Below, in pieces: positions 1-48,758 of a stretch of DNA of 64,000 bases. Under the pieces are notes generated by a model. It worked only from the letters and a program-made list of their open reading frames with translations. It did no database searches and was not told the origin of the DNA. Each line of letters begins with the position of its first letter. Position 1 is the first letter of the stretch. The stretch is from a virus, in IMG/VR virus record IMGVR_UViG_3300009094_000001, positions 8,579 through 72,578 of that record; one strand, written 5' to 3'. Position numbers and translations under genes: made by a program.

Positions 1-634
1 CCACAACGTCGGGGACCTCATGAAGGTTTTCTCGCCCGGCGAAATCGTGCTCAACGGCACCTACGTTATCCACACTCCGACGCACCAGTCGAAGAAAGGG
101 ACGGACCCGCTCAAAATCACCGTCATCGGTTTCAAGAAGAAGCAGTATGTCGAGAAGGTTTCTGGCGGAGCTAAAGGGTTGCTCGTGAACTCCGAGGCCG
201 AGGTCGAAGCCAACGGAGGCACCCTCAATTACGCGGTCTGGAAGCAGAACGACGACGCGCGCAAGACGAATCCTGCGCTGCCCGCCATCCGGCGATTCGA
301 GACGCTCGCAACCGCGTTGCTGCTGATTGAGCGCCCGGCGCATCTCACGGACAGCCTGCAATTTCCTTACGAGTTCGACGGCAAGTTTTACGCCCTCGCG
401 CTGTGGGGAATGAAGGGCACCGCGTTTACCAACGCCGCCAAGCATTTCTTCACCGCCCGCAAGATTGGTTTCTTGAAGACCGGTTATGCGGTCCGTTCGT
501 GGAACCTCACCACTCAGTTGGAGCCTTACAACAACGGCAACGTGTCGTGGATTCCTCAGGTGGAACCGTGCAAAGAAGCGAATTCCGACGCCTTCATTTC
601 CTTCGTCAAGGAAGTGATTGGTGCCGGCAACTAA
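1..634 (+). CDS. Putative phage ssDNA-binding/recombination protein (5' partial)
   Basis: Frame is open from position 2 (HNVGDL-MKVFSPGEIVLN); beta-rich and located upstream of the replication genes. Function inferred from context. Confidence 0.45.
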   Translation, partial: HNVGDLMKVFSPGEIVLNGTYVIHTPTHQSKKGTDPLKITVIGFKKKQYVEKVSGGAKGLLVNSEAEVEANGGTLNYAVWKQNDDARKTNPALPAIRRFETLATALLLIERPAHLTDSLQFPYEFDGKFYALALWGMKGTAFTNAAKHFFTARKIGFLKTGYAVRSWNLTTQLEPYNNGNVSWIPQVEPCKEANSDAFISFVKEVIGAGN

Positions 635-647
635 CCCACAAACACAC

Positions 648-875
648 ATGCCAAACACAACTACCAAGCCCGTCGGCCGGCCGCGCGCCGTCATCAAGCT
701 TCCGCGCAAGCGGGAATTCACCGTCGCGGACGTTATCGACATCAACGCGGTTTCGTCCCTCACGATTCGGAATTTCCTCAAGGAACTGATTCACACCGGG
801 AATCTCGTCACGGTAGGGACCACCAAGAACAAGGCCGGCCAGCGCGGGCGTCCTCGTTTCATCTATCGCCAGTAA
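648..875 (+). CDS. Small winged-helix DNA-binding protein with two GRPR (AT-hook-like) motifs
   Basis: MPNTTTKPVGRPR...VSSLTIRNFLKEL...GRPRFIY; ATG at 648 after an A/C-rich leader. Confidence 0.6.
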   Translation: MPNTTTKPVGRPRAVIKLPRKREFTVADVIDINAVSSLTIRNFLKELIHTGNLVTVGTTKNKAGQRGRPRFIYRQ

Positions 876-895
876 ACAACCCAGCCCCCGCGAAA

Positions 896-944
896 GGGGC
901 CGGGTGCAGAAGAAATTTTGCATCCGGCCCCCGACCTTTTGTTT
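896..944 (+). terminator. Long hairpin / probable intrinsic terminator
   Basis: GGGGCCGGGTGCAGAA-GAAA-TTTTGCATCCGGCCCC (16 bp including G-U pairs) followed by CGACCTTTTGTTT. Confidence 0.55.
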
Positions 945-1436
945 ATGACACAAATACCTCTCGGCAAAGACGGGAAGTTTTTTACCCTAGTCGATGACCA
1001 AGATGTCCCGTTTGTAAAACAAAACAGGTGGAGCAGACACCGGGGCCGAGGGACTTATTACGCCTCTCGATTGATTCACCGACGGGGAAAGCCCGCAAAA
1101 AGAATTTATCTGCATCGAGAGATTTTGTGCGCGGGCCGAGGTTTGAAGGTTGACCACCGAGACGGGAATGGATTGAACAACACTCGGGACAATTTACGGA
1201 CCGCAACAAACTCGCAAAATCATCAAGGAAAGATGACTCGCCCGGCCCATTTCAAAAGCAAGTTTCGCGGCGTGTATTGGCATAAGCAGAACAGAAATTG
1301 GTGCTCGCAGATTAAGTTTAATTACAAGAAGGCGCACCTCGGCTCCTTTTCTAAGGAGGAAGATGCCGCCCGTGCGTATGATTTAACCGCCCGAAAACTC
1401 TTTGGCGCGTTCGCTCAGTTGAATTTCCCGTCTTGA
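945..1436 (+). CDS. HNH-AP2 homing endonuclease
   Basis: LHREI..VDHRDGNGLNNTRDNLR HNH motif plus AP2 domain (FRGVYW..LGSF..EEDAARAYD). Confidence 0.9.
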   Translation: MTQIPLGKDGKFFTLVDDQDVPFVKQNRWSRHRGRGTYYASRLIHRRGKPAKRIYLHREILCAGRGLKVDHRDGNGLNNTRDNLRTATNSQNHQGKMTRPAHFKSKFRGVYWHKQNRNWCSQIKFNYKKAHLGSFSKEEDAARAYDLTARKLFGAFAQLNFPS

Positions 1437-1460
1437 CATGCGGCTGGCGTGTGGTAGATT
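1433..1460 (+). promoter_or_regulatory. sigma70-type promoter, leaderless
   Basis: TTGACA-N16-TAGATT; ATG 6 nt downstream (1467). Confidence 0.7.
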
Positions 1461-1466
1461 GGGGTA

Positions 1467-2084
1467 ATGATTATTGAGATAAATCGAGAGGAGTGGTTGC
1501 AGCGAGCGGTTCAAAAGCTGCGCCCCGTGTTTCTTGGGGCGGGGCACACAATTCCAGAACTTCGGGTTTCCGTCGGATGGCCCTCTAAAGGGGGGCTGGC
1601 GACAAAAAAGAGGGTTATCGGCCAGTGTTTTTACGGTCAATGTGCTGCTGACGGCAAGCCCCAGCTTTTCATCTCGCCGCTACTTGAGGAAGTCGGCGAC
1701 GCAGGCGGGGTGCTGCCGACCCTCGTCCACGAGGTTTGCCACGTCGCTGCCGGACCCGACGCGAAGCACGGCCCCCGATTCGTTAAGGTGATGAAGGCCC
1801 TCGGTCTCACCGGCAAGCCGACGGCTACAATTGCCGGCGAGGAGCTGCTGGCAAGGCTGCGCGAGATTTCAACGGAGCTGGGGCCCTTTCCGCACTCCAA
1901 GCTGGTTCCAATCAAGGATTACAAGCCTCAAAGCACGCGCATGATTAAGTGTGCCTGCGCACAGTGCGGATACCAAATTCGGCTGACTCGGAAGTGGCTT
2001 GAAGTCGGAATCCCGGAATGTCCGGTCGATAACCACGGGGAGCTGGAACAGGAAATCAAATTCAACGAACCGCCAAACGAATGA
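1467..2084 (+). CDS. SprT-like zinc metalloprotease
   Basis: LVHEVCH...HGPRF motif and C-terminal CxCxxC...CP zinc ribbon. Confidence 0.8.
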   Translation: MIIEINREEWLQRAVQKLRPVFLGAGHTIPELRVSVGWPSKGGLATKKRVIGQCFYGQCAADGKPQLFISPLLEEVGDAGGVLPTLVHEVCHVAAGPDAKHGPRFVKVMKALGLTGKPTATIAGEELLARLREISTELGPFPHSKLVPIKDYKPQSTRMIKCACAQCGYQIRLTRKWLEVGIPECPVDNHGELEQEIKFNEPPNE

Positions 2085-2290
2085 GCCCGCCCCCCGCCCT
2101 CGGATTGACAGACTACCCCTGTCCGCTTTGCGCGGCCCGACTGTGGGTCCAGCCCGGGACTCAACTAGACCCGAATGATGGCGTCACGGTATATTGTGCT
2201 AATTTGAATTGCCCCGCCCCCGAAGTGTTCGGCCACGGAAGCAATGAAAAGTCTGCGTATCAAATCATCAAAGAAAAATATCGCCCATGA
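2081..2290 (+). CDS. Small zinc-finger protein
   Basis: CPLC...CANLNC; ATGA overlaps with neighbours. Confidence 0.55.
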   Translation: MSPPPALGLTDYPCPLCAARLWVQPGTQLDPNDGVTVYCANLNCPAPEVFGHGSNEKSAYQIIKEKYRP

Positions 2291-2748
2291 GATTCTCGGG
2301 AGAAGAGCACTGCGAAGGTAAAAAGGTCTCGGCTGAGCGGGTCTGGGAAATCTACTGCAAGCTGTTAATCCGCTTTCAAACATTCCGGTGCCCCGGCCAA
2401 TTGAACCCGGTGATGGAAATCAAGCCGACGCGTCGCGGCTGTGCATACTATGCCCCGCTCCCGGGCTTTGTGATTCCGGCCCACATACTCGACACCTGCG
2501 AGGAATATGTGATTTTTTACATCTCACACGAGCTGTCGCATCACGCTTATGGCAGAATTCAACACGGGCCGGAGATGTGCAAGGTGGAGCGGGACATGCT
2601 GGCCCCGTTCGATATTTTTATCCACTACCGAGGCGGGTTCGGTAAAAACCAGCCTTGGTATCCTAGAGCGCTAACCCGGTCCACTGGTAGGGTTATTTGT
2701 GAAGTGGTCCGAGAGAACAGAAGAACCGTCGTAAAAATAAAATCATGA
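2287..2748 (+). CDS. Second SprT-like HExxH protein
   Basis: YISHELSHH...HGPE motif. Confidence 0.6.
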   Translation: MRFSGEEHCEGKKVSAERVWEIYCKLLIRFQTFRCPGQLNPVMEIKPTRRGCAYYAPLPGFVIPAHILDTCEEYVIFYISHELSHHAYGRIQHGPEMCKVERDMLAPFDIFIHYRGGFGKNQPWYPRALTRSTGRVICEVVRENRRTVVKIKS

Positions 2749-3350
2749 CACAAGAACAAATCGAAAAATTCATCCGCATTGGAAGAAAGTCCGGCTGGCC
2801 GGCGCTAACGAACGCGCCGCACAACCTTAGCGCCGCTGACGCGTCCACTGTTTATTTTGAATCGCGTAGGAGGGATGCTTCTGCAATGATATTTTCTTCA
2901 ATTTCTCCGGCGATGAAGCTCGAAGCGAACCCCGTCGTGTCCGCCAAGCGCCGGGTGCGCGCGTGGAAGAAACTTCTCAAGCCGCAGCCTTTCCCGGCCA
3001 ACGCGGGCGAGTGCATCCGAACCTCGGCCGAGGTGCCGGCTGGATACATCCCGTCGAAACTCAACCGCTCCTCGGTCAAATCCTGTGCGCTTGCGGAGTC
3101 TACGCGAATCCGCGCCGGCAAGTTCAAGCGCGTGTCGCCCTCGTTCGTGAAGCAAGTCGAGGCTGAGCTGGAAAACATCATCCGAGGCATCGGCGGAGCG
3201 GAGGATAGCGAAGCCCCTCCCGGGGAGTGGGATTTCCTCAACCGCAAGCAAATCTCCGCTCGGGTATTCGAGCAGCTCAACCGCGCGGTGCGAAAAATCA
3301 TCCTGCGCAAAGTGCGCGGGTATCCCTCCAAAGGTCAGACATTGAAATGA
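2745..3350 (+). CDS. Basic protein with C-terminal histone-fold-like region
   Basis: LNRSSVK..AL...KRVSPSFVKQVEAELENII...SKGQTLK resembles the alpha1-L1(RVS)-alpha2-L2(KT) pattern of prokaryotic histones. Confidence 0.45.
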   Translation: MTQEQIEKFIRIGRKSGWPALTNAPHNLSAADASTVYFESRRRDASAMIFSSISPAMKLEANPVVSAKRRVRAWKKLLKPQPFPANAGECIRTSAEVPAGYIPSKLNRSSVKSCALAESTRIRAGKFKRVSPSFVKQVEAELENIIRGIGGAEDSEAPPGEWDFLNRKQISARVFEQLNRAVRKIILRKVRGYPSKGQTLK

Positions 3351-3380
3351 CTTGACGAAACGACGAAAAGCCGGACCTTT
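3351..3380 (+). promoter_or_regulatory. Class II (phage-sigma) promoter
   Basis: CTTGACG-N15-GGACCTTT upstream of the DNA polymerase operon. Confidence 0.7.
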
Positions 3381-3391
3381 ATCCCGACTCA

Positions 3392-3595
3392 ATGTCTATC
3401 CCCGCGAAACCCAAGAGAACCAATCATTACAACGTGTTGTTCAACACGCTGGCCAAGCCGCTAGACTTAACCCACCCGGACGCAAATATGTTTGGGGCGT
3501 TTCCCTGTCCCTACTGTCAATCCATCTTTCGTTGGCCGAATCAGAAGAAACAACTCGTGTGTGATGATTGTGGTCTGGAACAACCGCTCGAATGA
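3392..3595 (+). CDS. Small zinc-ribbon protein
   Basis: CPYC...CDDC. Confidence 0.55.
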   Translation: MSIPAKPKRTNHYNVLFNTLAKPLDLTHPDANMFGAFPCPYCQSIFRWPNQKKQLVCDDCGLEQPLE

Positions 3596-5613
3596 ATACC
3601 ATCGGAGTTGACTTTGAGACCTTCTATCACAAGAAGCTGAAATACGGCATCGAGTGGCAGGGCGTTTGGAAATACTGCGATGATGCGCGCTTCGACCCCT
3701 ACCTGATTTCCGTTTACGACGGCTCCGAAGCTTGGGCCGGGCATCCTCGGGATTTTAACTGGAATTCTCTCGACGGTGCCCACCTTCTCTCACACAACGC
3801 TCAATTCGAGCGAACCGTTCACGCGGCGATGGTGCGCAAGAACCTTGCACCATCCTTGAACATCCCTAGATGGACTTGCACAGCTAACATGACTTCGTAT
3901 CTGTGCAACCGAAGGGCGCTCGACAAGGCTACGGAATTTTTATTGGGGGTCAAGATTTCCAAGGAGGTTCGGGATTACGCGGACGGAAAACACTGGGCGG
4001 ATATCGTCTCGGACGGACGCGCAGACGACATGCTGGCGTATGGCCGTTCCGACGTGGTGTATTGCCACGGGCTGTGGACCCGCTATGGACACCTCTGGCC
4101 GGAATGGGAACAAAGGGTCTCCGAGCTGACCATTCGGCAGGGCATGCGCGGGATTCAAATCAACGTTGAGCTGCTCAAGGAATACATCGTTGTCGCTACG
4201 CAGATGTTGCAAGCAACCGAGCGACTCTTACCGTGGATTGAGGAAGGCCGCGCGCCGACGAGCCCCAAGGCAATTGCAGAGGCTTGCCGCGCGGCGGATA
4301 TTCCGTGTCCCCCGGTGCAGTCTCATTTTGAAGACGGGGCGGAGCGGATGATGCAGTGGGAAGCCGCGTATGGACCGCGCTTCCCGTGGGTCGTCAACGT
4401 GTCAAGCTGGCGGCAGATTAACAAGTTCCTCGACTCGCTGCAAACGATTTCAGAGAGGCTACAAGACGATGGGATTTTTGCTTTCGGGCTCAAGTATTTT
4501 GGAGCGCACACCGGGAGATGGTCCGGGGCGGAGGGGTTCAACATGCAGAATCTACGCAAGACCCCCTTGTATCGAGACGAGGCCGGGTTGTTGATTGTGG
4601 ACCCCGCGCGGCTCAAGGAAATCGAGCGGGAGAAGGTGCTCCCATCTTACGTTACTTTTGCCCTCGATATTCGCAAGCTTTTTATTCCTCGTGCCGGGCG
4701 CAAGATGATTGTCTGTGATAGTTCGCAAATTGAGCCTCGCTGCCTCTCGTGGAGCGTCCAAGACCAAGCCAAGCTGGACATGTTGCGCGCGGGCAAGTCT
4801 CCGTATCAAGCGCACGCCGAATTAACGATGGGCTGGGACGGCGGAGACCTGAAAAAACTTATCGCCAGCGGACGCAAGGACCTCGCGGATTTTTATGCGC
4901 TGTCGAAGGCCCGAGAGCTTGGGCTGGGGTTCGGATGCGGATGGAAAAAATTTATCTTCATGGCGATGGACCTCGCGCAATATGACGTGACTAAGGACGA
5001 CCCCGAAGTCACTCCGAAGCTTAGCAAGACCGGTGAACCATGTCTCGACAAGGAGGGGAACATCATCATGGAATCTGGATACGGATTCAACTCCAAGCGC
5101 ATCGTCAAGGAGTGGCGCGCGGCAAACCCCTTGATTGCGGCGCGAGATTTCGACCACCCGGAAAATAACGGGCTCTGGGCGAGACTCGACGAAGCGTTCA
5201 AGGCTTCCTCCGGCCGGGATTTCGAGATTGAGTTACCATCCGGTCGGTGCCTGCGCTATGGTCAGGTGCGCCGCGAGTGCCGGACGGAGCAGGACGAGGA
5301 TACCGGCGCGTTTGTGCGACGCTGGGTCACCACTGCAAATATCGGCGGGCGGCGATTCGTCATCTATGGCGGGAAGCTTACAGAGAACATGATTCAAGCT
5401 TTTGCGCGGGACGTGTTTGCGCAGCAATTACTGGAACTTGACAATACTCCGGGAATTGCTACCTTGTTCTCGTCACACGACGAAGCGATTTTGGAAGCCG
5501 ACAACCATATCACCGAGGCCGACGTGCAAACCATCATGTCGAAAGCCCCCGACTGGGCACCCGGGCTGCCGGTTGCAGCCGAGGCAAAAGAAGTCCCCCA
5601 CTATGTTAAATAA
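3592..5613 (+). CDS. polA: Family A DNA polymerase with 3'-5' exonuclease
   Basis: ExoI VDFET; HTGRWS..FNMQNL; motif A DSSQIEPR; motif B KARELGLGFG; motif C HDE. ATG at 3592. Confidence 0.95.
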   Translation: MNTIGVDFETFYHKKLKYGIEWQGVWKYCDDARFDPYLISVYDGSEAWAGHPRDFNWNSLDGAHLLSHNAQFERTVHAAMVRKNLAPSLNIPRWTCTANMTSYLCNRRALDKATEFLLGVKISKEVRDYADGKHWADIVSDGRADDMLAYGRSDVVYCHGLWTRYGHLWPEWEQRVSELTIRQGMRGIQINVELLKEYIVVATQMLQATERLLPWIEEGRAPTSPKAIAEACRAADIPCPPVQSHFEDGAERMMQWEAAYGPRFPWVVNVSSWRQINKFLDSLQTISERLQDDGIFAFGLKYFGAHTGRWSGAEGFNMQNLRKTPLYRDEAGLLIVDPARLKEIEREKVLPSYVTFALDIRKLFIPRAGRKMIVCDSSQIEPRCLSWSVQDQAKLDMLRAGKSPYQAHAELTMGWDGGDLKKLIASGRKDLADFYALSKARELGLGFGCGWKKFIFMAMDLAQYDVTKDDPEVTPKLSKTGEPCLDKEGNIIMESGYGFNSKRIVKEWRAANPLIAARDFDHPENNGLWARLDEAFKASSGRDFEIELPSGRCLRYGQVRRECRTEQDEDTGAFVRRWVTTANIGGRRFVIYGGKLTENMIQAFARDVFAQQLLELDNTPGIATLFSSHDEAILEADNHITEADVQTIMSKAPDWAPGLPVAAEAKEVPHYVK

Positions 5614-5853
5614 ATGAATGCTATTGCTTACAAAACCAAAGACGGGCTTTATTGCATCGCCCCGGCCCCCTCTTTCAGCTCCCGTCACTACTCGTTGGAC
5701 ATTCCGTATTGCTCCATCCGCCGGGCGATTTATACCCGGTCTAGTTTGTGCTTTGCGGATGCCGACCCCCACGAGGTCTGTGAAGTCCTCACGCGAGAAT
5801 ACCGAAGAAATGGGGAAAGACACCAAGGCTTCCCAGTTTTTGAGGAAGTCTGA
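5614..5853 (+). CDS. Hypothetical protein
   Basis: ORF tightly fills the gap between the polymerase and primase genes. Confidence 0.5.
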   Translation: MNAIAYKTKDGLYCIAPAPSFSSRHYSLDIPYCSIRRAIYTRSSLCFADADPHEVCEVLTREYRRNGERHQGFPVFEEV

Positions 5854-8066
5854 TGTTTTTCCTTCGCAATCTTTCGTCCATCGACATCTCCCCCGGGTTA
5901 CCGTGGGAATTCACCGCGCTGGACCGCGTTCCTGTGCAGGCCCTCGGCAAGGAGGGCAAAAAAGCGCGCACGGAATGGATAACGAATCCTAAGACAGACT
6001 TCCACGTTTACACGCTATTCGAGGGCGTGAATTCCAACCTGCGCGTCCGCGCGCCGGGTAACGACGGGGAAGGAAACCCCGCGCGAGTTTTGCACGGGCT
6101 ACCGCTAGATTACGACTTCCCCCTTGCCGAGGCAGAAATTCTCGCCGGCATCGAACGTATGCCGCCCGACCTCCGACCGAACTGGCGGGAAACAACGCTC
6201 TCGGGAAATCTTCGCCTCCTATGGCTTTTTGCGTTTCCGGTAAATCTCCCCAGCCACGAGTTTGCAATCGAATTTCTGAAATCCCTCGACGCCGTTATCC
6301 CGTTCCGCAATCTCGCCGGCATCGACGAGTCCGCCCTCATTGCGCCGGAACGTCTATACACCAACGGCTGTCGTTGGCAGAAAATCAACCCGAATCCTTT
6401 TCCTCACGCGCTGCTAGCCGGCCACTTCATCAAGTTCTCTGATAAGTTCGATTGGAAGGGCGACAAGGACGCAACCCTCATCCCCCTCGATATCGTGGCT
6501 GAGCAGCTCCGACAAAAATTCCCGCGCTTCTCAGAATGGCCCGGGGATTTCGTGGAAGGCGCGCAGGGCCCTTCTTTTTGGATTGATGGGTCCGAGTCTC
6601 CGAAGTCCGCAATCGTTCGGCAGACCGGCATGCAGTCGATGGCGGCGCACCGGAGCAAGCCGTTTTACTTTTGGCCGGAACTAATCGGCGTGGAGTTTTG
6701 TAGCCGATACAAAACCGAGCAAATCGGGAAGGCCACCGACGGAATTTTTTACGACGAGAAGCAATACTATTCGCTGAATCAGGCCGGGGTTTGGTGCGCA
6801 GACCCAAAGGAGAATATCGTCGGACTCCTGAAAACCGAGCGCGGCCTTTCCGACCTCAAGCGCAAGGGCGAAACGACCTCGGAGATAGAAAGGGCCCTCG
6901 TGCATATCCAGCGTCGGAACCGCGTGCGCGTGGCTGCGCCGTTCGCCTTTTTCCCGGCCGGGCGAACCACTCTACTCGGAGAATCCGTCTTGAACACTCA
7001 CACACGAAAAGCGATGACGCCCGCTGAAAAACCCGGTCCGTTTCCCTTCATCGATAAGTTTCTCCGCACTCTGTTTAACCCCGCCGAGCAATACGAATTT
7101 TTCATCTCGTGGCTGAGTTACTATTACAAGGCTTGCCACGCAAGGAGCCCCCGCTCCGGGCACGCATTATACATGTTCGGCGGCACCAGCGTAGGAAAAA
7201 CCTTTTGCATGCGCGGAATCGTCGGCGGTCTCGTCGGCGGCTTCGCAGAACCGCAAGCTTTCTTCACGGGCGAGGACAGTTTTAACAGCGAGCTTTTTGA
7301 CTACGCATTATGGTGCATCGACGACGGCTCCCTCAGCAAGAACTACGCGATGCACCACAAGGTTACAGAGACCATCAAACGCACCGTAGCTAACCCCACG
7401 ATGCGCTGTCGCGGTCTCTATTCCAAGGGTGCAACGGTTAGTTGTCAACCAAGGATTTCTATCACGGGCAATCTCGACGAGGAGTCCAAGAAAAACCTCC
7501 CGGACATGGACATGTCACTCCGGGAAAAAATCATGGTGCTAAAAACTCACGAGCACGCGCAGGTGGAATTTCTGCCCTTCGATGAAATGACCGCGATGCT
7601 GGCCCGGGAGCTTCCATACTTTGCCCGATTTCTTCTGGACTGGGAAATTCCGCCGCAATGCAAGGCAACGGACCCGCGTTTCGGCGTGGCGAATTACCTC
7701 GAAAAGTCTCTCGTCGAATCCGCGAACCAGAACAGCATCTCTGGCGCGTTCAGCGAAATCCTCGACGAGTGGCAGACCATGTATTTTACGCAATACGAAC
7801 CGGGAGCTGATAAGTGGGAGGGGACTTCGTTGCAACTCTACAAGTCGATTATGCAGGACCATACCCTCGTTGAGGCGATGCGTCCTTTCGGAGTTCAGAA
7901 CGTCGGACGCATGTTGATTTCCCTCGCGAACAAGCACGTATTCAACATCTCAGTCTCCGGCGACGAAGGTCGGCGCATGTTTACCATCCCGAGAGATGTT
8001 TCTCGCTTCCCAAAAACAAAAAGCTTGATTGTTCCGGGGAACAGTGTAAAGTTCACAAAAGTATGA
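5853..8066 (+). CDS. Primase-helicase (D5-like/SF3-type P-loop NTPase)
   Basis: N-terminal primase-like region (LDYD, ETTLSGNLRLLW); Walker A GGTSVGKT; Walker B WCIDD; sensor ITGN. Confidence 0.8.
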   Translation: MFFLRNLSSIDISPGLPWEFTALDRVPVQALGKEGKKARTEWITNPKTDFHVYTLFEGVNSNLRVRAPGNDGEGNPARVLHGLPLDYDFPLAEAEILAGIERMPPDLRPNWRETTLSGNLRLLWLFAFPVNLPSHEFAIEFLKSLDAVIPFRNLAGIDESALIAPERLYTNGCRWQKINPNPFPHALLAGHFIKFSDKFDWKGDKDATLIPLDIVAEQLRQKFPRFSEWPGDFVEGAQGPSFWIDGSESPKSAIVRQTGMQSMAAHRSKPFYFWPELIGVEFCSRYKTEQIGKATDGIFYDEKQYYSLNQAGVWCADPKENIVGLLKTERGLSDLKRKGETTSEIERALVHIQRRNRVRVAAPFAFFPAGRTTLLGESVLNTHTRKAMTPAEKPGPFPFIDKFLRTLFNPAEQYEFFISWLSYYYKACHARSPRSGHALYMFGGTSVGKTFCMRGIVGGLVGGFAEPQAFFTGEDSFNSELFDYALWCIDDGSLSKNYAMHHKVTETIKRTVANPTMRCRGLYSKGATVSCQPRISITGNLDEESKKNLPDMDMSLREKIMVLKTHEHAQVEFLPFDEMTAMLARELPYFARFLLDWEIPPQCKATDPRFGVANYLEKSLVESANQNSISGAFSEILDEWQTMYFTQYEPGADKWEGTSLQLYKSIMQDHTLVEAMRPFGVQNVGRMLISLANKHVFNISVSGDEGRRMFTIPRDVSRFPKTKSLIVPGNSVKFTKV

Positions 8067-8245
8067 CTCCCGAGAAAGAACTGGTCCTAATCATCAAAGG
8101 CGCAATCTCTGAATTGCCCGCCGCCCAACGCGAAGCTGTCGAAGAGTTGGCAGACCATATTCGCAGGGCGCTTGTGACAGCGGGAGACCCCGTCGCATCT
8201 ATGGCCCTTGCCCTCGTCGGAGCAGAAGCAGCAGCCCGAGAGTGA
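8063..8245 (+). CDS. Hypothetical protein
   Basis: 60-aa ORF with ATGA/GTGA overlaps on both sides. Confidence 0.55.
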   Translation: MTPEKELVLIIKGAISELPAAQREAVEELADHIRRALVTAGDPVASMALALVGAEAAARE

Positions 8246-8895
8246 GTATGTCTGAATACTACAAACCAACAGAAGATTTGAGATTTGAGCCGCTGAATGG
8301 CGAGGAAGAGCGGGCGCTTTTCGACGCCGCGCGCTCCGGCTGCGAACACGCGAAGGAATTCATTATCCGAAGCCATCTTCTGTTTGCCGCCAAAGAAGGA
8401 CGCCGCTGGGCGCGCGGAGGACTGCCCGAGGACGAGGTGATATCCGCCGCGAACTTTGCGCTGATGAAAGCTTACGAGGCGTTCGACCACACGCGCGGGA
8501 ACCGCTTCGCGTCGTTCCTGCGCCCTTTTATCCGGGGGAGAATCGCGGAACTCTGGCGGGCGCAGAACGTGGTCGGCGAACATCAACGGAAGTTCGTTGA
8601 CAAGGAAGAACAGCCGGCCGGCAAGCTTCAAGAGCCGGTGGTTTATCAGGAGGTGGAAAGCGAGGACCACGCACGATTTCTGGAAAAGATGGTCAACGAG
8701 GCCAAGCAGGCGGTGCTGACGGAGAGGGAAAGAATCGTCCTCGACCAACACTTCGGGGCAGGCAAGGAAATGACGAAGATTGCGAAGCAACTCAAGTTAA
8801 CCCGCGAGCGCATTCGGCAAATCAAGGAGTGCGCGCTGCGAAAGCTGAACCGGGAACTGACCTTGCGCATGAAACTTGCGGGGGTGCAGAGATGA
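8242..8895 (+). CDS. Phage-encoded sigma-70-family sigma factor
   Basis: Region 1.2 (PLNGEEERAL), region 2 (FDHTRGNRFASF) and region 4 (IAKQLKLTRERIRQIKECALRKL). Confidence 0.9.
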   Translation: MSMSEYYKPTEDLRFEPLNGEEERALFDAARSGCEHAKEFIIRSHLLFAAKEGRRWARGGLPEDEVISAANFALMKAYEAFDHTRGNRFASFLRPFIRGRIAELWRAQNVVGEHQRKFVDKEEQPAGKLQEPVVYQEVESEDHARFLEKMVNEAKQAVLTERERIVLDQHFGAGKEMTKIAKQLKLTRERIRQIKECALRKLNRELTLRMKLAGVQR

Positions 8896-9425: not shown

Positions 9426-9994
9426 AACCGCAACCACTTCCCATACCCTCCCGCGAGTCTACAAGTCACGGACAACTAAACGCGCTGCTGTGCATCACCC
9501 AAGCGCTGCAACCCTACCTGATACTTCCGCCGCAGGAGAACATCCCCAAGGAGCCTCAACTCGACGGCGGCACCGTGGCGGCTGCCGCAACAACGTTTAT
9601 CAAAACCTGCGCCAAGATTGACGAGCTGCTCGCGGATTTGTCCCGCTGGAATCTGGAAAGCCAAGACGCGCTTTACGACGCGCTGGTGAGGACGCAGGAA
9701 CAACAACAGGCATTTTTGAAAGCCCAGACCGCCGCCGCAGAGTCGATAACGCGCCCATCTTTTCAGCTAAAGCCCGTGCTGGTGCTCGTCGATAACGGCT
9801 ACGCGGCGGTATACGGGGACTTGACAACCGGCGCGTCAGTGGTAGGGTATGGGCTCACGCCGGAGCTTGCGTTTGCAGACTTTGATGCTGCGTGGCGTCG
9901 TCAGGCAATCGAGCAAAATGTGATTTCGCCAGTGGAGCAGCCCGCGCCTCCGCCGGCAGCGCCAGAAGTAAAACCAAAGCGAAAAAAGAAATGA
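9422..9994 (+). CDS. Hypothetical protein
   Basis: ATGA-coupled ORF starting MKPQPLP. Confidence 0.6.
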   Translation: MKPQPLPIPSRESTSHGQLNALLCITQALQPYLILPPQENIPKEPQLDGGTVAAAATTFIKTCAKIDELLADLSRWNLESQDALYDALVRTQEQQQAFLKAQTAAAESITRPSFQLKPVLVLVDNGYAAVYGDLTTGASVVGYGLTPELAFADFDAAWRRQAIEQNVISPVEQPAPPPAAPEVKPKRKKK

Positions 9995-11292
9995 ATAAAC
10001 CTTGGAGCAAATACGAGGACGAAACAATACGGACGTATTCAAATAACGCGCATGCCGCCAGTGTGCTCGGCCGCACAGAAGCGGCGATACGCGGGCGTCG
10101 GCAACGTCTCGGGCTCGTGAATCCAAAAAATCCAATCAACGAAAAGGAAGTTGTGTCGGAGACCAAGTTCCAACAGGAGAAAGAATCCACACCCTCAACT
10201 TTCGAGGAGGACCTCGACACGAGTCGAAACGAATACTGGAAGCACCAGTACAAGGCCCTCGAATCGAAATACAAGCAAGCCCTCAAGCAAACTTCCGTCG
10301 TTGAACAGCTCGTGGAGCGCGCGGCAGACCTCGCCCCGCTTTCTTATCAGTGCGCCGCCCCGGAAATCAAGCCCGTGCAACATTCCGGGAACCCGCAATC
10401 CGCTGTGTTGCTGTTATCAGATACGCACGTCGGCCAAATCGTCAAGCCGAGTCAAACGCTCGGGCTCGGGCTCTATAATTTCGAGGTGTTCCTTGCGAGG
10501 CTCAAATTCGTCGAGGATTCCGTTCGCAGCATCATCGGAGACCACACCACAACCGAAGTCCCGGAGCTGGTGGTTTGCCTCGGGGGCGATATGTTGCACG
10601 GCGCACTGAATCACAGCGCCGAAGCTGCTCAGCACACCACGCTGTTTTCACAATTTTACGGAGCCGGCCACGCACTCGCGCAGTTCCTTCGCAATCTCGC
10701 GCCGATTGTGCCGAAGATTCGCATCCAAACCGCCGTTGGAAACCACCCCCGATGGGGGCACCAACACAAGATGCCGACGCACAATCGCTACTCGAATCTT
10801 GACCACTTTCTTTACGCCTACGTGCAGGCGTTGACACGGGAGATTACGTCGATTGAATGGCAGCTCGACATGCAGCCGTTCAGTCTTTTCGACGTTCAGG
10901 GATTCCGCTTTCACCTCTCGCACGGGGACCACCTTCGCGGCGGAGACAAAGCGCTCGGGATTCCGAATCACGCCGTCGGCCGTATGGTTTCTGCCAACGT
11001 GCAGCTCTTCGGAAAGCACGATTTGCCGGCCCCGCACTACTACCTGACCGGGCACCTTCACCGCGATATCGCGTTGCCGCATGCACGCGGCAGTTTCATC
11101 GTCAACGGCGGGTTCGCCGGCATCGATGGATATTCGCTGACGGAGGGATTTTCGCCGGTTGACCCAACGCAGACATTTTTCCTCGTGCATCCGAAATACG
11201 GCAGGACCGCAACGTATCCGATTCAACTCAAGTTCGCCGAAGTGCAGGAACACCGCCCTTACACGATTCCCGAGGGATATGAAATCAACTAA
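9991..11292 (+). CDS. Calcineurin-like metallophosphoesterase with N-terminal Myb/HTH-like domain
   Basis: SDTHVG, LGGDM, VGNH, HGD, GHLH motifs; N-terminal WSKYED..LGRTEAAIR. Confidence 0.85.
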   Translation: MNKPWSKYEDETIRTYSNNAHAASVLGRTEAAIRGRRQRLGLVNPKNPINEKEVVSETKFQQEKESTPSTFEEDLDTSRNEYWKHQYKALESKYKQALKQTSVVEQLVERAADLAPLSYQCAAPEIKPVQHSGNPQSAVLLLSDTHVGQIVKPSQTLGLGLYNFEVFLARLKFVEDSVRSIIGDHTTTEVPELVVCLGGDMLHGALNHSAEAAQHTTLFSQFYGAGHALAQFLRNLAPIVPKIRIQTAVGNHPRWGHQHKMPTHNRYSNLDHFLYAYVQALTREITSIEWQLDMQPFSLFDVQGFRFHLSHGDHLRGGDKALGIPNHAVGRMVSANVQLFGKHDLPAPHYYLTGHLHRDIALPHARGSFIVNGGFAGIDGYSLTEGFSPVDPTQTFFLVHPKYGRTATYPIQLKFAEVQEHRPYTIPEGYEIN

Positions 11293-11300
11293 ACAAAAAA

Positions 11301-11696
11301 ATGAAGTTATTCCACAAAAGCAAAGACGGGGGTCCAGAGTCCAACGTGACGGGCTACTGGCTTATCGAATGGAAATCGCTATTCAGCATTGCGCTGTTGC
11401 GGTTCAGCCACGGGACCCGGGAGTCCTTCCACAGCCACGCGTTCAACTGCGCGTCCTGGCTGTTGTCGGGACAACTCAACGAGGAATTCAAAAACGGCAA
11501 CGGTCCGTATTTGATTCACAAGCCGGGATTCCGGCCAATCATTACGCGCCGGAATCATTTTCACCGCGTGTTCAGTGTGGGAACTTCGTGGGTCCTAACG
11601 TTTCGCGGACCGTGGTCAAAGACGTGGAACGAGTTTGACCCGCGCACGAACAAAACAATCACCTTGGCCCAGGGGCGGAAAGTGCTGCCCTCCTAA
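11301..11696 (+). CDS. Cupin-like protein
   Basis: FHSHAF...E...HFHRV metal-binding pattern. Confidence 0.6.
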   Translation: MKLFHKSKDGGPESNVTGYWLIEWKSLFSIALLRFSHGTRESFHSHAFNCASWLLSGQLNEEFKNGNGPYLIHKPGFRPIITRRNHFHRVFSVGTSWVLTFRGPWSKTWNEFDPRTNKTITLAQGRKVLPS

Positions 11697-11700
11697 ACTT

Positions 11701-12006
11701 ATGTGGACCCGCGAAACTGCATTTCAATTCCTCGAACCGCTCGAAAAATTCCTCGCCGCGAACGGCTATCACTGCGCCCTCGGCGGCGGGGTGATGTATC
11801 GAGGTAATTCCGACAAAGACCTCGACGTTATTGTGTATCCTCACGACCGGGATAACTGCATCTTGGTGGACGTGCTTTGGGAGCGCCTGCACGGCTTTCT
11901 ATCTCCGCTCAAGTCTTTCAAATCCAAAGGAAGCTCCCGCGACAGCAAAGACGTTCGTGTGTTTTACGTATTTCAAGGGCGCATCGATTTCTTTTTCCTG
12001 AAATAA
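11701..12006 (+). CDS. Minimal Pol-beta-type nucleotidyltransferase-like protein
   Basis: LGGGVMYRGNSDKDLDVIV...IDFFF, matching hGG..DxD..D. Confidence 0.6.
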   Translation: MWTRETAFQFLEPLEKFLAANGYHCALGGGVMYRGNSDKDLDVIVYPHDRDNCILVDVLWERLHGFLSPLKSFKSKGSSRDSKDVRVFYVFQGRIDFFFLK

Positions 12007-12034
12007 TCTCAGGAGCAAACCAACCAACCACGAA

Positions 12035-12433
12035 ATGAACAAATACAAAACCCTACTGGCGCTGGCGTCCCTGCTGGCGGTTATTCCTCCGGTGCATGCC
12101 GGCGTGAAAGAAATCGGCTCCGTCAACGGGCTCCGCGTTGTCCGCATCAAGACGGCTGGCGTGTTCTGCCCTAGCACGACGACCATCGTGTGCTACGACC
12201 CGAACAAGCCGGGCACCATCGAAGGCGTCCTCAATTCAGCGGCAGGCCCCGGGTTCGTCCCGGCGGCTGCTAACGCAGGCGGTCTCGTCGGCGCAGCGGC
12301 GCTGTTGCGCCCGAACCACACGACAGTCAACAACGACGGAGGAAATTCTTCCGCGAATTCGTCGGCTTCTGGTTCCGGCAGCTCCACCACGACCGGCGGA
12401 AGCTCTGGCTGGATTCCGCCCGGACATCGCTAA
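12035..12433 (+). CDS. Secreted protein with signal peptide and Ser/Gly-rich tail
   Basis: MNKYKTLLALASLLAVIPPVHA signal peptide. Confidence 0.6.
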   Translation: MNKYKTLLALASLLAVIPPVHAGVKEIGSVNGLRVVRIKTAGVFCPSTTTIVCYDPNKPGTIEGVLNSAAGPGFVPAAANAGGLVGAAALLRPNHTTVNNDGGNSSANSSASGSGSSTTTGGSSGWIPPGHR

Positions 12434-12462
12434 AAGGCATTATGGACAATTTAACCGGCCCA

Positions 12463-12490
12463 TTGACACTTCTTGTTTGCGTCCTAGCTT
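12463..12490 (+). promoter_or_regulatory. sigma70-type promoter, leaderless
   Basis: TTGACA-N16-TAGCTT; ATG 8 nt downstream. Confidence 0.55.
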
Positions 12491-12498
12491 CCGCCATA

Positions 12499-12609
12499 AT
12501 GGCACGCCTGTCGGTCCGTGAAATGATTCGAGACGAGGTGGAAAAAGAAGCCCGGCTCACTAAAAACGGAGAGAAGGACTACGGTTCTTTGGCAGACTGG
12601 GGGCTCTAA
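12499..12609 (+). CDS. 36-aa microprotein (MARLSVREMIRDEVEKEARL...)
   Basis: Sits between its own promoter and a terminator; not in the ORF track. Confidence 0.45.
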   Translation: MARLSVREMIRDEVEKEARLTKNGEKDYGSLADWGL

Positions 12610-12632
12610 AATTCACTTCGACGGAGCGTGAA

Positions 12633-12658
12633 CGCCCCATGACGGGGCGATTTTTTTA
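12633..12658 (+). terminator. Intrinsic terminator
   Basis: CGCCCC-ATGAC-GGGGCG-ATTTTTTT. Confidence 0.7.
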
Positions 12659-12659
12659 C

Positions 12660-12687
12660 TTGACGGGGCGGTTTTCTGTAGTAAATT
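12660..12687 (+). promoter_or_regulatory. sigma70-type promoter for structured RNA
   Basis: TTGACG-N16-TAAATT. Confidence 0.6.
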
Positions 12688-12693
12688 GATGGC

Positions 12694-12917
12694 GTCGGGC
12701 AAGTATCAGAGATGCCGCGAGCCGTCCTCGGAAGAGTGACCTGAGACTGAGATGGGCGCTGCGAACCCCCGACTGTCGGTTCAAAGGCGCACATGCCGGG
12801 AAACGTTCCCGGAATTAGGATAGGATATCTACTTGCGCGTTTACGGCTGGAAGCCGTCGCGTCACGGAGGATTGGGAGATGCTATCGAGGGACGTGTGCC
12901 CCTTTGAGCCGACACCA
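12694..12917 (+). ncRNA. Unidentified two-domain structured RNA
   Basis: GTCGGG(12694)/CCCGAC(12768) closes domain 1. GTCGGTTCAAAGG-CGCAC/GTGC-CCCTTTGAGCCGAC closes domain 2, which ends in ACCA and has internal hairpins. Confidence 0.6.
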
Positions 12918-12931
12918 ACTATAACAAAAAC

Positions 12932-13384
12932 ATGAGAACTGAACTTACTGACAAAGCCAGAGATTTCGCAGTGGAAGCCCACCGTGGACAATTTCGCAGA
13001 AACCGAACTACTCCCTATATTCTCCATCCAGCGCGCGTCGCAAAACACCTAGCTTCTAGGGGCGAGTCAGAAAACGTGGTTGCGGCAGCGTGGCTGCATG
13101 ACGTTCTTGAAGACACACAGACCACCGAGATTTTCCTTCGGTCCGCTGGTTTCCCGGACCGGGTTATTCAAGCCGTCGTTGCCCTTTCCAAACGCAAGGG
13201 CGAGAATTACGACGAATATTTGTCCCGGGTGATGTTTGATGCCATCGCCCGCAAGGTTAAAATCGCCGATATCCTTGACAACATCTCGGATTCCCCTACC
13301 CCCGGCCAGATTTCTCGCTACGCCAAAGCCCTGAACTTCCTCGTCAACCACCCCGGGGCCAAAAATTCACCGATTCCCGAATAA
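12932..13384 (+). CDS. HD-domain small alarmone hydrolase (Mesh1/SpoT-HD-like)
   Basis: AHRGQFRR..PYILHP..AAWLHDVLEDT..VKIADILDN. Confidence 0.85.
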   Translation: MRTELTDKARDFAVEAHRGQFRRNRTTPYILHPARVAKHLASRGESENVVAAAWLHDVLEDTQTTEIFLRSAGFPDRVIQAVVALSKRKGENYDEYLSRVMFDAIARKVKIADILDNISDSPTPGQISRYAKALNFLVNHPGAKNSPIPE

Positions 13385-13390
13385 AATTAC

Positions 13391-13419
13391 TTGACAGACC
13401 GCCCCGGACCGTGTAATTT
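13391..13419 (+). promoter_or_regulatory. sigma70-type promoter, leaderless
   Basis: TTGACA-N17-TAATTT; ATG 6 nt downstream (13426). Confidence 0.75.
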
Positions 13420-13425
13420 AACGCC

Positions 13426-14300
13426 ATGAGCAAAACGAATCTCGTGGCAATTGAGGGAAATACTTACAGAGTCAGGGAACAACTCAAGGCACTCGGCGCG
13501 CGTTGGAACGGCGCAAACCGGTGCTGGATGATTTCGGCCGAGCGCGCGGACGAAGCCCGGGCTATCGTCATCGGCAAACCCGAACCCAAGCCGGCTGTCC
13601 AAAAGGCGGACACTAACTGGTCCGACGAACAGAAGGCGATTTTCGCGTGGTTTGCCTCGGGGACCGGCAATCTTATCGTGCAGGCGTATGCTGGCACCGG
13701 CAAAACCACCACCATCAAGGAGGCTTTCACGCACGCGCCCGAGGAGGGCCGGCTGCTTTACGCGGTGTTCAACAAGAAGAACCAGCGCGAGGCGCAGGAG
13801 AAAATCACAGACCCCCGCGTGGATGTTCGCACGCTGCACTCCCTCGGGTATTTCTTCATCAAGAACGTCTGGCGCGACGCGAAGCCGGATGACTTCGTGG
13901 AAACGGACCGCCTCGTCGCCATTGACCCGACCCTGCCCGAGGAGGTTTCCTCGCAGGTGCTCAAGCTCGTCGGATTCTGCAAAAACCTCACGACCGGGAT
14001 TCCTGAACTGAACGCCGTCCTCGAAATTGCCGACGCGCGCAACATCTCCGTGCCCGATGACATGGAGCGCGATTTTCCCCCGGCCCGAGTTGCGTCCCTC
14101 GCGATTGAAGTGCTCAAGCAATCGCTGATTAAGGACCGCTCTGGCCGGGTTTCTTTCAACGACATGGTGTGGTTGCCCGTCGCCGCCGGCTGGGTGAAGC
14201 CGACCTTTTCGCTCGTGGTGGTTGACGAGGCCCAAGACATGAACATGCCCCAGCTCATGATGGCGGAGCGCGCGTGTAAACGACGAGGGCCAAAAAGGTG
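13426..14300 (+). pseudogene. Truncated UvrD/Rep-like SF1 helicase
   Basis: Motif I AYAGTGKT, Ia VFNK, TLHSLG, II VDEAQD. Similarity stops before motif III (GD..Q.IY); the ORF runs on to 14565 out of frame over the next gene. Confidence 0.7.
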
Positions 14301-14332
14301 CTCGTCCGCGCGTGCGGAAAGGCGGGTGCAGA

Positions 14333-14602
14333 ATGAGAAATATCGACATTGCGAAAACCTACATCAAGCACGGAGAAGACTGGTTCTTCGTGTCCACCAT
14401 CAATCGGGAGTCCTCTGCGGCGATTATTCCGTCATCGTGGTATGCCGAAACGATTGTTTGGAGCACCAATGTTGCCGGGGAGAGGCAGGAACTTCTTTGG
14501 CAGGGCGACGCCTATTTCGACAGCATCAAGACTCACCAGCGCGTTGTCGAGGCGCTACACGCTAAGGGTGCGGAGGGACTTAAAGGACCGGACGACGAAT
14601 GA
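14333..14602 (+). CDS. Hypothetical protein
   Basis: MRNIDIAK..FFVSTI..YAETIVW; ATGA-coupled to the next gene. Confidence 0.55.
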   Translation: MRNIDIAKTYIKHGEDWFFVSTINRESSAAIIPSSWYAETIVWSTNVAGERQELLWQGDAYFDSIKTHQRVVEALHAKGAEGLKGPDDE

Positions 14603-48685: not shown

Positions 48686-48758
48686 TGGCGGGCAGAGACG
48701 GGTTTTAACCGCCGTTTCCGAGACAAAAGCTCGGTGTCCTCACTTAGACGATTCGCCC
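48686..48758 (-). tRNA. Non-canonical tRNA, anticodon UUU (Lys)
   Basis: GGGCGAA..GTCTAAGTGAGGAC-A-CCGAG CTTTTGT CTCGG-AAAC-GGCGG TTAAAAC CCGTC-TCTGCCC-G-CCA. Confidence 0.65.

Follow-up and report, generated by a model that had tools for sequence, protein, structure and literature searches.

The strongest fold in the 72.6-kb genome of a phage, IMG/VR record IMGVR_UViG_3300009094_000001, is a non-coding module with sharp mosaic boundaries that travels with an alarmone-hydrolase-like gene. We analysed a 64,000-nucleotide (nt) stretch of this record (its bases 8579–72578; hereafter the window, to which coordinates refer unless another sequence is named), in which the module, a branched rod that we call domain 2, lies just upstream of a gene encoding a RelA/SpoT-type HD-domain protein (the HD gene). 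The rod is a real, strongly structured, non-coding element that is probably transcribed, and we think it likely that it is a selected structure, most likely an RNA. Our best explanation, which we advance tentatively, has the rod transcribed as part of the 5′ leader of the HD gene and then cut at its foot, which would yield a stable hairpin RNA and a hydrolase mRNA with a short leader. The features that bear on this proposal are as follows (aa, amino acids).

12633–12656, + strand: intrinsic terminator; a hairpin at 12633–12649 (six G–C pairs, 5-nt loop), then seven T.
12660–12687, + strand: sigma70-like promoter; TTGACG at 12660–12665, a 16-nt spacer and TAAATT at 12682–12687, a 9/12 match to the consensus.
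12694–12773, + strand: domain 1; an 80-nt leader segment with a GUCGGG/CCCGAC closing stem.
12774–12914, + strand: domain 2 (the rod); 141 nt forming 46 predicted pairs, branched at a three-way junction that bears a side hairpin.
12914–12931, + strand: ACCA (12914–12917), then 14 unpaired, A-rich nt (ACUAUAACAAAAAC) that reach to the HD start codon.
12932–13384, + strand: HD-domain protein gene; 150 aa, RelA/SpoT hydrolase type, small-alarmone-hydrolase-like, carrying HDVLEDT.

Fold, coding capacity and modular conservation of the rod

Domain 2 has a predicted folding energy of −66.9 kcal/mol (z = −5.38), and none of 200 shuffled sequences folded as well. We also folded 141-nt windows across the genome (56% G+C), on the + strand only, regressing energy on G+C and deliberately adding the exact domain 2 window to the grid. 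Among the 2,071 windows, domain 2 was the top GC-corrected outlier, with a residual of −24.1 kcal/mol (z = −4.25); when the added window is set aside, the regular one that lies a single base away still ranked first (z = −3.8), and the next independent window reached z = −2.9. The predicted structure has a closing stem of 14 base pairs (bp), a C/C mismatch and 7 further bp, two of them G–U; a perfect 7-bp side hairpin (CCGGGAA-ACG-UUCCCGG) at the three-way junction; an inner GAUAG/CUAUC helix that leads into an 8 × 16-nt internal loop containing GGAGGAUUGGGAG; and an apex made of a GCGCG/CGCGU helix and an ACGGCU-GGA-AGCCGU tip. The 8 × 16-nt loop, the largest in the rod, is just 11 bp from the apical loop, and the 14-nt ends of the rod are inverted repeats at 13 of 14 positions. 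An initial annotation of this DNA had drawn the same closing stem, CCGGGAA/UUCCCGG side hairpin, GAUAG/CUAUC stem and ACGGCU/AGCCGU tip, and that drawing proved essentially right. The reverse complement folded 11 kcal/mol worse (−55.9 kcal/mol, z = −4.9), because three of the stem pairs are G–U on the + strand, which has no A–C pairs.

The structural signal is confined to domain 2. Domain 1, annotated at first as a domain closed by GTCGGG/CCCGAC, does have that stem at the inferred transcription start, but its fold was at chance level (z = −0.71; 53 of 200 shuffles as good), which leaves it unsupported as a structure. The full 227-nt stretch of both domains gave −94.7 kcal/mol (z = −3.25). The two domains (compared at 12694–12733 and 12775–12814) share the start GTCGG and, 18 nt on, ATGCCG, then 11 nt and CGGAA, amounting to 77% likeness over 22 nt in the same register at 81-nt spacing, and GTCGG/CCGAC is present at all four domain ends. 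They may be a diverged tandem duplication; the alignment is marginal, with the local score equalled by 106 of 2,000 shuffles and the global score by 18 of 1,000 (p about 0.02–0.05). A 28-nt, 93% match to domain 1 in a Chthoniobacterales genome was dismissed, as it lies within a permease gene on the other strand.

The leader has little coding capacity. The only open reading frames (ORFs) in 12694–12931 are one of 43 aa (12793–12924) and one of 18 codons (12879–12935), consistent with the earlier view that the segment holds no convincing ORF. The 43-aa ORF has no counterpart in a collection of 5.8 billion proteins and is disrupted by a 1-nt deletion at 12839 in one relative (X5, below). The 18-codon ORF (MLSRDVCPFEPTPTITKT) has GGAGGA in front of it, and its stop codon overlaps the HD start as ATGA. 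We set it aside as a coupling leader peptide because the phage apparently makes no use of Shine–Dalgarno motifs, which are not enriched at its start codons (12 of 72, against a background of 17.5%).

Contigs of four small-share runs were aligned to 11300–14300 at 80% likeness, and the only homologues of the rod came from a sediment study (X5) and a soil study (X7), both distinct from the likely source study, at about 89% identity; only the parts covered by contigs were interpreted, and no RNA run is among those that match this region. The X5 contig, of 31,409 nt, aligns at 12033–12063, at 12319–12434 and then continuously at 12775–14282 (161 changes and 16 gaps in 1,508 positions; about 88–89%), with 174 unrelated letters instead of 12434–12775. 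It keeps the rod still joined to the HD gene, followed by the helicase gene; the upstream 55-aa ORF, the terminator, the promoter and domain 1 are replaced. From X7, a 213-nt contig aligns at 12775–12915 only (12 changes, 4 gaps), leaving 16 and 58 unaligned letters at its ends, and a separate 361-nt contig, with unrelated flanks, carries an 81%-alike piece of domain 1 (12702–12770 only, 13 changes). Similarity begins at G12775, the first paired base, in both X5 and X7, and in X7 it ends one base past the last paired base. With both breakpoints located at its foot, the rod shows itself in these alignments to be a discrete, self-contained accessory module, separate from domain 1, that behaves as functional units do in phage mosaics.

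The protein encoded next to the rod matches Pfam HD_4 (37.8 bits, cut-off 27.2), phrog_990 (E = 3e-46) and, in part, the spoT_relA subfamily (E = 1.6e-15), and its HDVLEDT fits HDxxED, a motif that we take to be the mark of RelA/SpoT-type hydrolases. The label of RelA/SpoT-type small hydrolase, and with it the initial call of an alarmone hydrolase downstream of the element, is sound at the family level; an alarmone substrate is a prediction. Relatives number 111 in IMG/VR, 450 in a metagenome collection and 278 in GTDB genomes; we kept the best 80 of each (240 viral, metagenome and bacterial loci), among which identity to the HD protein reaches at most 56% (at most 55% in the metagenome and genome sets). 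Most of these homologues are directly preceded by another ORF. The closest bacterial ones (L175–L208, among the best 80 of 278; 47–54% identity) come almost only from Verrucomicrobiota and Planctomycetota, which, together with the absent Shine–Dalgarno use, suggests that the host is probably a PVC bacterium (Verrucomicrobiota/Planctomycetota group).

Searches for known families and for copies of the rod

Rfam 15, run over the whole window at gathering thresholds, returned nothing at the rod locus, and a permissive scan (E ≤ 10) of the 451 nt at 12550–13000 contained no 6S RNA, riboswitch, tRNA, tmRNA, signal recognition particle RNA or ribozyme; its sole match was a viral frameshift element (E = 6.6) over the terminator and promoter. 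ARAGORN finds no tRNA at the rod, reporting only the tRNA-Lys at 48686–48758. The family had gone unrecognised in the initial annotation, and after these scans the rod is an orphan candidate, outside all families tested. A single-sequence covariance model of domain 2 (R1), run on sets of 92, 80 and 80 sources, found no rod at the 240 HD homologue loci (best E = 1.9), and blastn and nhmmer with 12660–12931 gave no match in the first 161 of them. There was no usable homologue by blastn among INPHARED phages. Exact-pattern scans of IMG/VR with three 17-mers of the rod and a 16-base motif common to domains 1 and 2 yielded 23 stretches, all attributable to chance, and R1 did not find the rod in 26 sources taken from those scans. 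By blastn, 401 sampled Verrucomicrobiota genomes gave nine matches of 19–40 nt (E from 1e-4 to 1e-2 per genome), which we judged to be chance, and 401 sampled Planctomycetota genomes gave none. Within the phage the rod is single-copy; no target-site duplication is visible in its flanks (CCCGAC|T and A|CCAACT), and a search for antisense targets in the rest of the phage genome found no complementarity longer than 12 nt.

Five related phages, with helicases 46–71% identical to that of the phage studied here, have neither the rod (by R1 and by blastn of 12610–12931 in their records) nor the HD gene, and their exonuclease/helicase slot carries other cargo, including HNH-AP2 and endonuclease VII-like genes. 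Because the slot is filled otherwise in these relatives, the rod and HD gene are, on this comparison, accessory cargo in a hypervariable slot. In one relative (L171, 3090–3530), the slot has a terminator and a TTGACA promoter, after which some 400 non-coding nt lead to an unrelated 153-aa ORF. Two tRNA-like pieces lie in the non-coding part (3148–3245 and 3455–3517), with GGGUUCGAnnCCC T-arms and acceptor-like stems of 5–7 bp; they score 22.9 and 20.2 bits against tRNA-Sec, which is sub-threshold, ARAGORN is blank for both, and the second ends 12 nt before the 153-aa ORF.

Transcription, processing and competing explanations

The terminator at 12633–12656, present as the initial annotation had stated, closes the upstream operon. 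Its loop, 3′ arm and T-run (TGACGGGGCGATTTT) recur 21 nt on (TGACGGGGCGGTTTT), where they provide the −35 hexamer of the sigma70-like promoter. The inferred start, G12694, is the first base of the GTCGGG stem and the seventh base past the −10 hexamer (TAAATT-gatggc-G12694), a spacing equal to that of the A of the ATG at the leaderless promoters of the phage. No terminator was found between the rod and the HD gene. Since a strong terminator lies upstream and none lies between the two, expression of the HD gene would need a promoter within 12657–12931, and if TTGACG/TAAATT is that promoter, the rod would be co-transcribed with the HD gene. The RNA had been described as finishing in ACCA; that motif is present at 12914–12917, but an RNA end there would be a prediction, as no terminator lies between the rod and the HD gene.

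The pattern TTGACN-N15-19-TANNNT occurs at 19 sites in the genome. Because an ATG follows the −10 hexamer by 6–8 nt at 9 of the 19, as in TAATTT-aacgcc-ATG at the helicase gene, the phage seems to make leaderless mRNAs from sigma70-type promoters. These nine promoters, of the TTGACA type, are at 1433, 13391, 48924 (− strand), 49539 (− strand), 52144, 55912, 57945, 61967 and 62473, and several of them are followed by ATGAGCAA. The promoter at 12660 is unlike the leaderless sites in that 238 non-coding bases come next. Start codons in the phage are preceded by A/T-rich stretches, as is the HD start (ACUAUAACAAAAAC-AUG).

At the foot of the rod, U12774 occupies position −1 and G12775 position +1, paired with C12913 in a helix of 13 uninterrupted bp that is followed by A12914 as discriminator, then C12915, C12916 and A12917, and then a single-stranded A/U-rich trailer, ACUAUAAC. 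This arrangement resembles, in sequence only, hairpin substrates of RNase P, whose determinants are some 12 bp of helix ending in an unpaired 3′ RCCA, with U−1/G+1 at the junction. As described in two reviews (PMC4919922, PMC11143913), bacterial RNase P pairs the 3′ RCCA of its substrate with GGU in L15 and prefers U at −1, and its substrates include acceptor/T-stem hairpin models, pre-4.5S RNA and regulatory RNAs of phages, C4 among them. Another paper (PMC2190699) reports that RNase E cuts Escherichia coli tRNA precursors 1–3 nt past the encoded CCA. We propose that domain 2 (12775–12914, with the ACCA to 12917), carried within an accessory cassette, would be transcribed from the + strand as the 5′ part of the HD mRNA, and that its foot, resembling a tRNA acceptor/T-stem minihelix, would undergo endonucleolytic processing. 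Bacterial RNase P could cut at 12774|12775 and an RNase E-like enzyme right after the CCA. Alternatively, RNase III could cut within the 21-bp stem, which at about 20 near-continuous bp has the length of an RNase III substrate, cleavage being only predicted. Cleavage would release a stable hairpin RNA of about 143 nt and leave the HD mRNA a leader of some 14 nt, which matches the short-leader or leaderless transcripts apparently used at the other promoter-proximal genes of the phage.

Several observations weigh against this processing model. A short leader alone could be obtained from a promoter beside the ATG, as elsewhere in the phage, so the presence of the rod needs some explanation beyond processing. 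The sigma70 promoter of the initial annotation stands as a promoter-like site with a 9/12 match, but this is a consensus match only: a 3-kb scan found four such sites against 1.0 ± 0.9 by chance, and the −35 region is a copy of the 3′ terminator half (12640–12654 versus 12661–12675, 93% identical). Judged by sequence, the repeated half may be either the duplication from which a promoter was born or a second, alternative terminator arm. A −10-like TATAAC at 12920–12925 lies 6 nt before the HD ATG, in the geometry of a leaderless promoter, and could yield a leaderless HD mRNA that lacks the rod; its −35 match is poor (2/6, within the 3′ strand of the rod). The excess of G–U over A–C pairs points to a + strand RNA, as a weak strand signal. 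At the foot, NCCA follows 68 of 6,950 12-nt stems genome-wide under loose criteria, a count that did not discriminate, and a CCA at one fixed offset is a 1-in-64 chance. U12774 is able to pair with A12914, and where −1 pairs with +73, RNase P may cut less well or at another position. The rod also has no T-loop, and ARAGORN and Rfam detect nothing tRNA-like at this position.

The rod might instead be a stable trans-acting RNA—a protein sponge or decoy, a 6S-like polymerase binder or an acceptor-stem mimic—with the HD gene merely sharing its promoter, an alternative that we regard as possible but doubtful. Its gene-like mosaic behaviour is in keeping with such a role, with similarity that starts at 12775 in two contigs and stops at 12915 in X7, as are its exceptional stability, the minihelix foot with ACCA and the slot of L171, where a terminator and promoter precede about 400 non-coding nt with two tRNA-like pieces. 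However, the rod has no terminator or other defined 3′ end after it, occurs once in the phage and in none of the five related records, has no stretch above 12 nt that is complementary to other parts of the genome, and matches neither 6S RNA nor any other Rfam family. The polymerase-binding form, which gains no support here, was one of two functions suggested in the initial annotation, as a decoy that would sequester host sigma70 holoenzyme in a phage that switches to a sigma factor of its own. 6S RNA, which binds sigma70 holoenzyme and templates a product RNA, is about 180–200 nt long, with a large central bubble between long closing and terminal stems. The rod is similar in being mostly double-stranded with internal loops and in having a sigma70-type promoter, but it does not match the Rfam 6S models even at E ≤ 10, is only 141 nt long and has its largest loop beside the apex rather than at the centre. 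Pfam detects no sigma factor in 91 ORFs (72 in the window at E ≤ 1e-4 and 19 further ones at E ≤ 0.01, 12 of these from the left 8.6 kb), contrary to the supposed sigma switch, and a sigma70 sponge would harm the phage because its promoter-proximal genes appear to use sigma70-type promoters. We consider it unlikely that the rod acts only as a 5′ stabiliser or RNase III site by which the HD mRNA has its half-life or translation set. The closing helix, near-perfect over 21 bp and thus some two helical turns long, lies between a promoter, with the domain 1 stem at the inferred +1, and the first gene, recalling the RNase III processing hairpins of the lambda N leader and T7 early mRNAs, where a stem of about 20 bp is similarly placed. 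Unlike those sites, the rod is a single instance with a three-way junction and a side hairpin, and its cleavage is a prediction; no comparable intergenic hairpin occurs elsewhere in the phage (next window z = −2.9), which argues against a general punctuation system, and the domain 1 stem is no better than chance. An RNase III role also overlaps our best explanation and is inseparable from it here.

The signal could also reside in the DNA, as an imperfect 141-bp palindrome representing a mobile-element relic, a recombination or insertion scar, or a protein site over a leaderless HD promoter, which we hold to be quite unlikely. The − strand also folds well (z = −4.9), the 14-nt ends are 13/14 inverted repeats that coincide with the module breakpoints, TATAAC is found 6 nt upstream of the HD ATG, and the slot is hypervariable, holding HNH-AP2 and endonuclease VII-like genes in relatives. 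ERIC and Correia elements are palindromic repeats that are transcribed and fold into hairpins, and the rod shares their imperfect palindromy (about 130–150 bp), inverted ends and sharp boundaries. In contrast to these elements, it is single-copy, is not found in the five related phages, the 401 Verrucomicrobiota and 401 Planctomycetota genomes sampled or the IMG/VR pattern scans, and has no visible target-site duplication; moreover, its + strand mismatches are G–U rather than a mix of G–U and A–C, and the GC skew of the genome carries no sign of an origin. The other function suggested initially, cis-regulation of the hydrolase, would make the rod a riboswitch-like sensor of (p)ppGpp, a related nucleotide or a protein, through which the hydrolase mRNA would be adjusted in its translation or stability, a role that we think highly improbable. 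The rod does lie, co-oriented, in the 5′ leader of a RelA/SpoT-type gene, is still joined to it in X5 and has a three-way junction with purine-rich internal loops, and in being a leader RNA beside an alarmone-metabolism gene it is reminiscent of the ppGpp and PRPP (phosphoribosyl pyrophosphate) riboswitches, which are ykkC subtype 2. Yet no riboswitch model matches at E ≤ 10, the 14+7-bp closing helix greatly exceeds a switchable P1 in stability, the structure leaves the HD start free and thus offers no evident expression platform, and none of the 240 other HD loci has the rod.

A more specific idea, to which we attach very little credence, is that the cassette is a two-part counter-defence against toxic small alarmone synthetases of the CapRel/FaRel2 type, which pyrophosphorylate the CCA end of tRNAs. 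The cut rod, with its 13-bp acceptor-like helix and free ACCA, would serve as a decoy substrate that titrates the toxin, and the co-transcribed hydrolase would remove the tRNA pyrophosphate or degrade the toxic alarmone. The published literature ties the alarmone-hydrolase-like class to systems of toxic alarmone synthetases. Were this true, the rod, as a mimic of the tRNA end that is paired with its repair enzyme, would represent a novel type of anti-defence RNA in phages.

Our preferred reading, processing of a leader hairpin by tRNA enzymes, has parallels among described RNAs. Like, reportedly, the C4 antisense RNA of P1/P7, the rod is a phage-encoded, probably promoter-driven hairpin with an acceptor-like foot and 3′ RCCA, for which release from a longer transcript is proposed; the likeness extends to E. 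coli pre-4.5S RNA, and one review (PMC4919922) lists both RNAs as substrates of RNase P. The rod differs in being longer and branched, in having no sequence or covariance-model similarity to described families and no antisense target found, and in that its processing is a proposal. Few structured RNAs are known from phages of Verrucomicrobiota and Planctomycetota, and the accessory cassettes of phages are commonly interpreted in terms of their protein genes alone. As a processed stable RNA, the rod would join, as a further family, the few hairpin RNAs of phages for which maturation by tRNA enzymes is known, and it would be a test case for a long leader in a phage apparently reliant on leaderless mRNAs; as no more than a stability element or a DNA palindrome, it would be unremarkable.

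Genomic neighbourhood

The complete record comprises 72,578 bases with direct terminal repeats and is rated complete; its GC skew gives no signal of a replication origin. The rod region sits in a + strand replication block, between exonuclease-like and UvrD-type helicase genes. Other features referred to above are listed here.

9892–11292, + strand: exonuclease-like gene (phrog_284).
From 13426, + strand: UvrD-type helicase gene; a 379-aa ORF.
48686–48758, − strand: tRNA-Lys(UUU), called by ARAGORN; CCA encoded, unusual T-loop (GGUUAAAACCC), 44 bits in Rfam.

The trailer that follows the encoded CCA of the tRNA-Lys is A/U-rich, as is the one after the ACCA of the rod, a likeness that speaks for the processing model. 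In the helicase region (13426–14602), the 379-aa ORF has a garbled C-terminal part and its end is overlapped by a 96-aa ORF (14312–14602); helicases of three relatives (L169, L171 and L172) are 546–551 aa long. The sequence suggests a frameshift near 14290, whether an assembly error, a pseudogene or recoding. Upstream of the terminator, the 55-aa ORF (12442–12609) has a hydrophobic N-terminal stretch and is absent from two relatives: a contig of X7 links 12433 to 12618 through seven other letters, and in X5 the region is replaced.

Outside the window, the left genome end (L174, genome positions 1–8700) encodes a NUDIX hydrolase (2778–3263) and an RNA-ligase-family protein (PF09414, 6242–7126), which, taken with the HD hydrolase, hint at counter-defence cargo that acts on nucleotides or tRNA. 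Genes resembling HNH-AP2 homing endonucleases are dispersed in the phage (918–1433, and 47772–48350 on the − strand), and in relatives such genes occupy the variable exonuclease/helicase slot (L169, 3148–3627; L172, 2585–3067).

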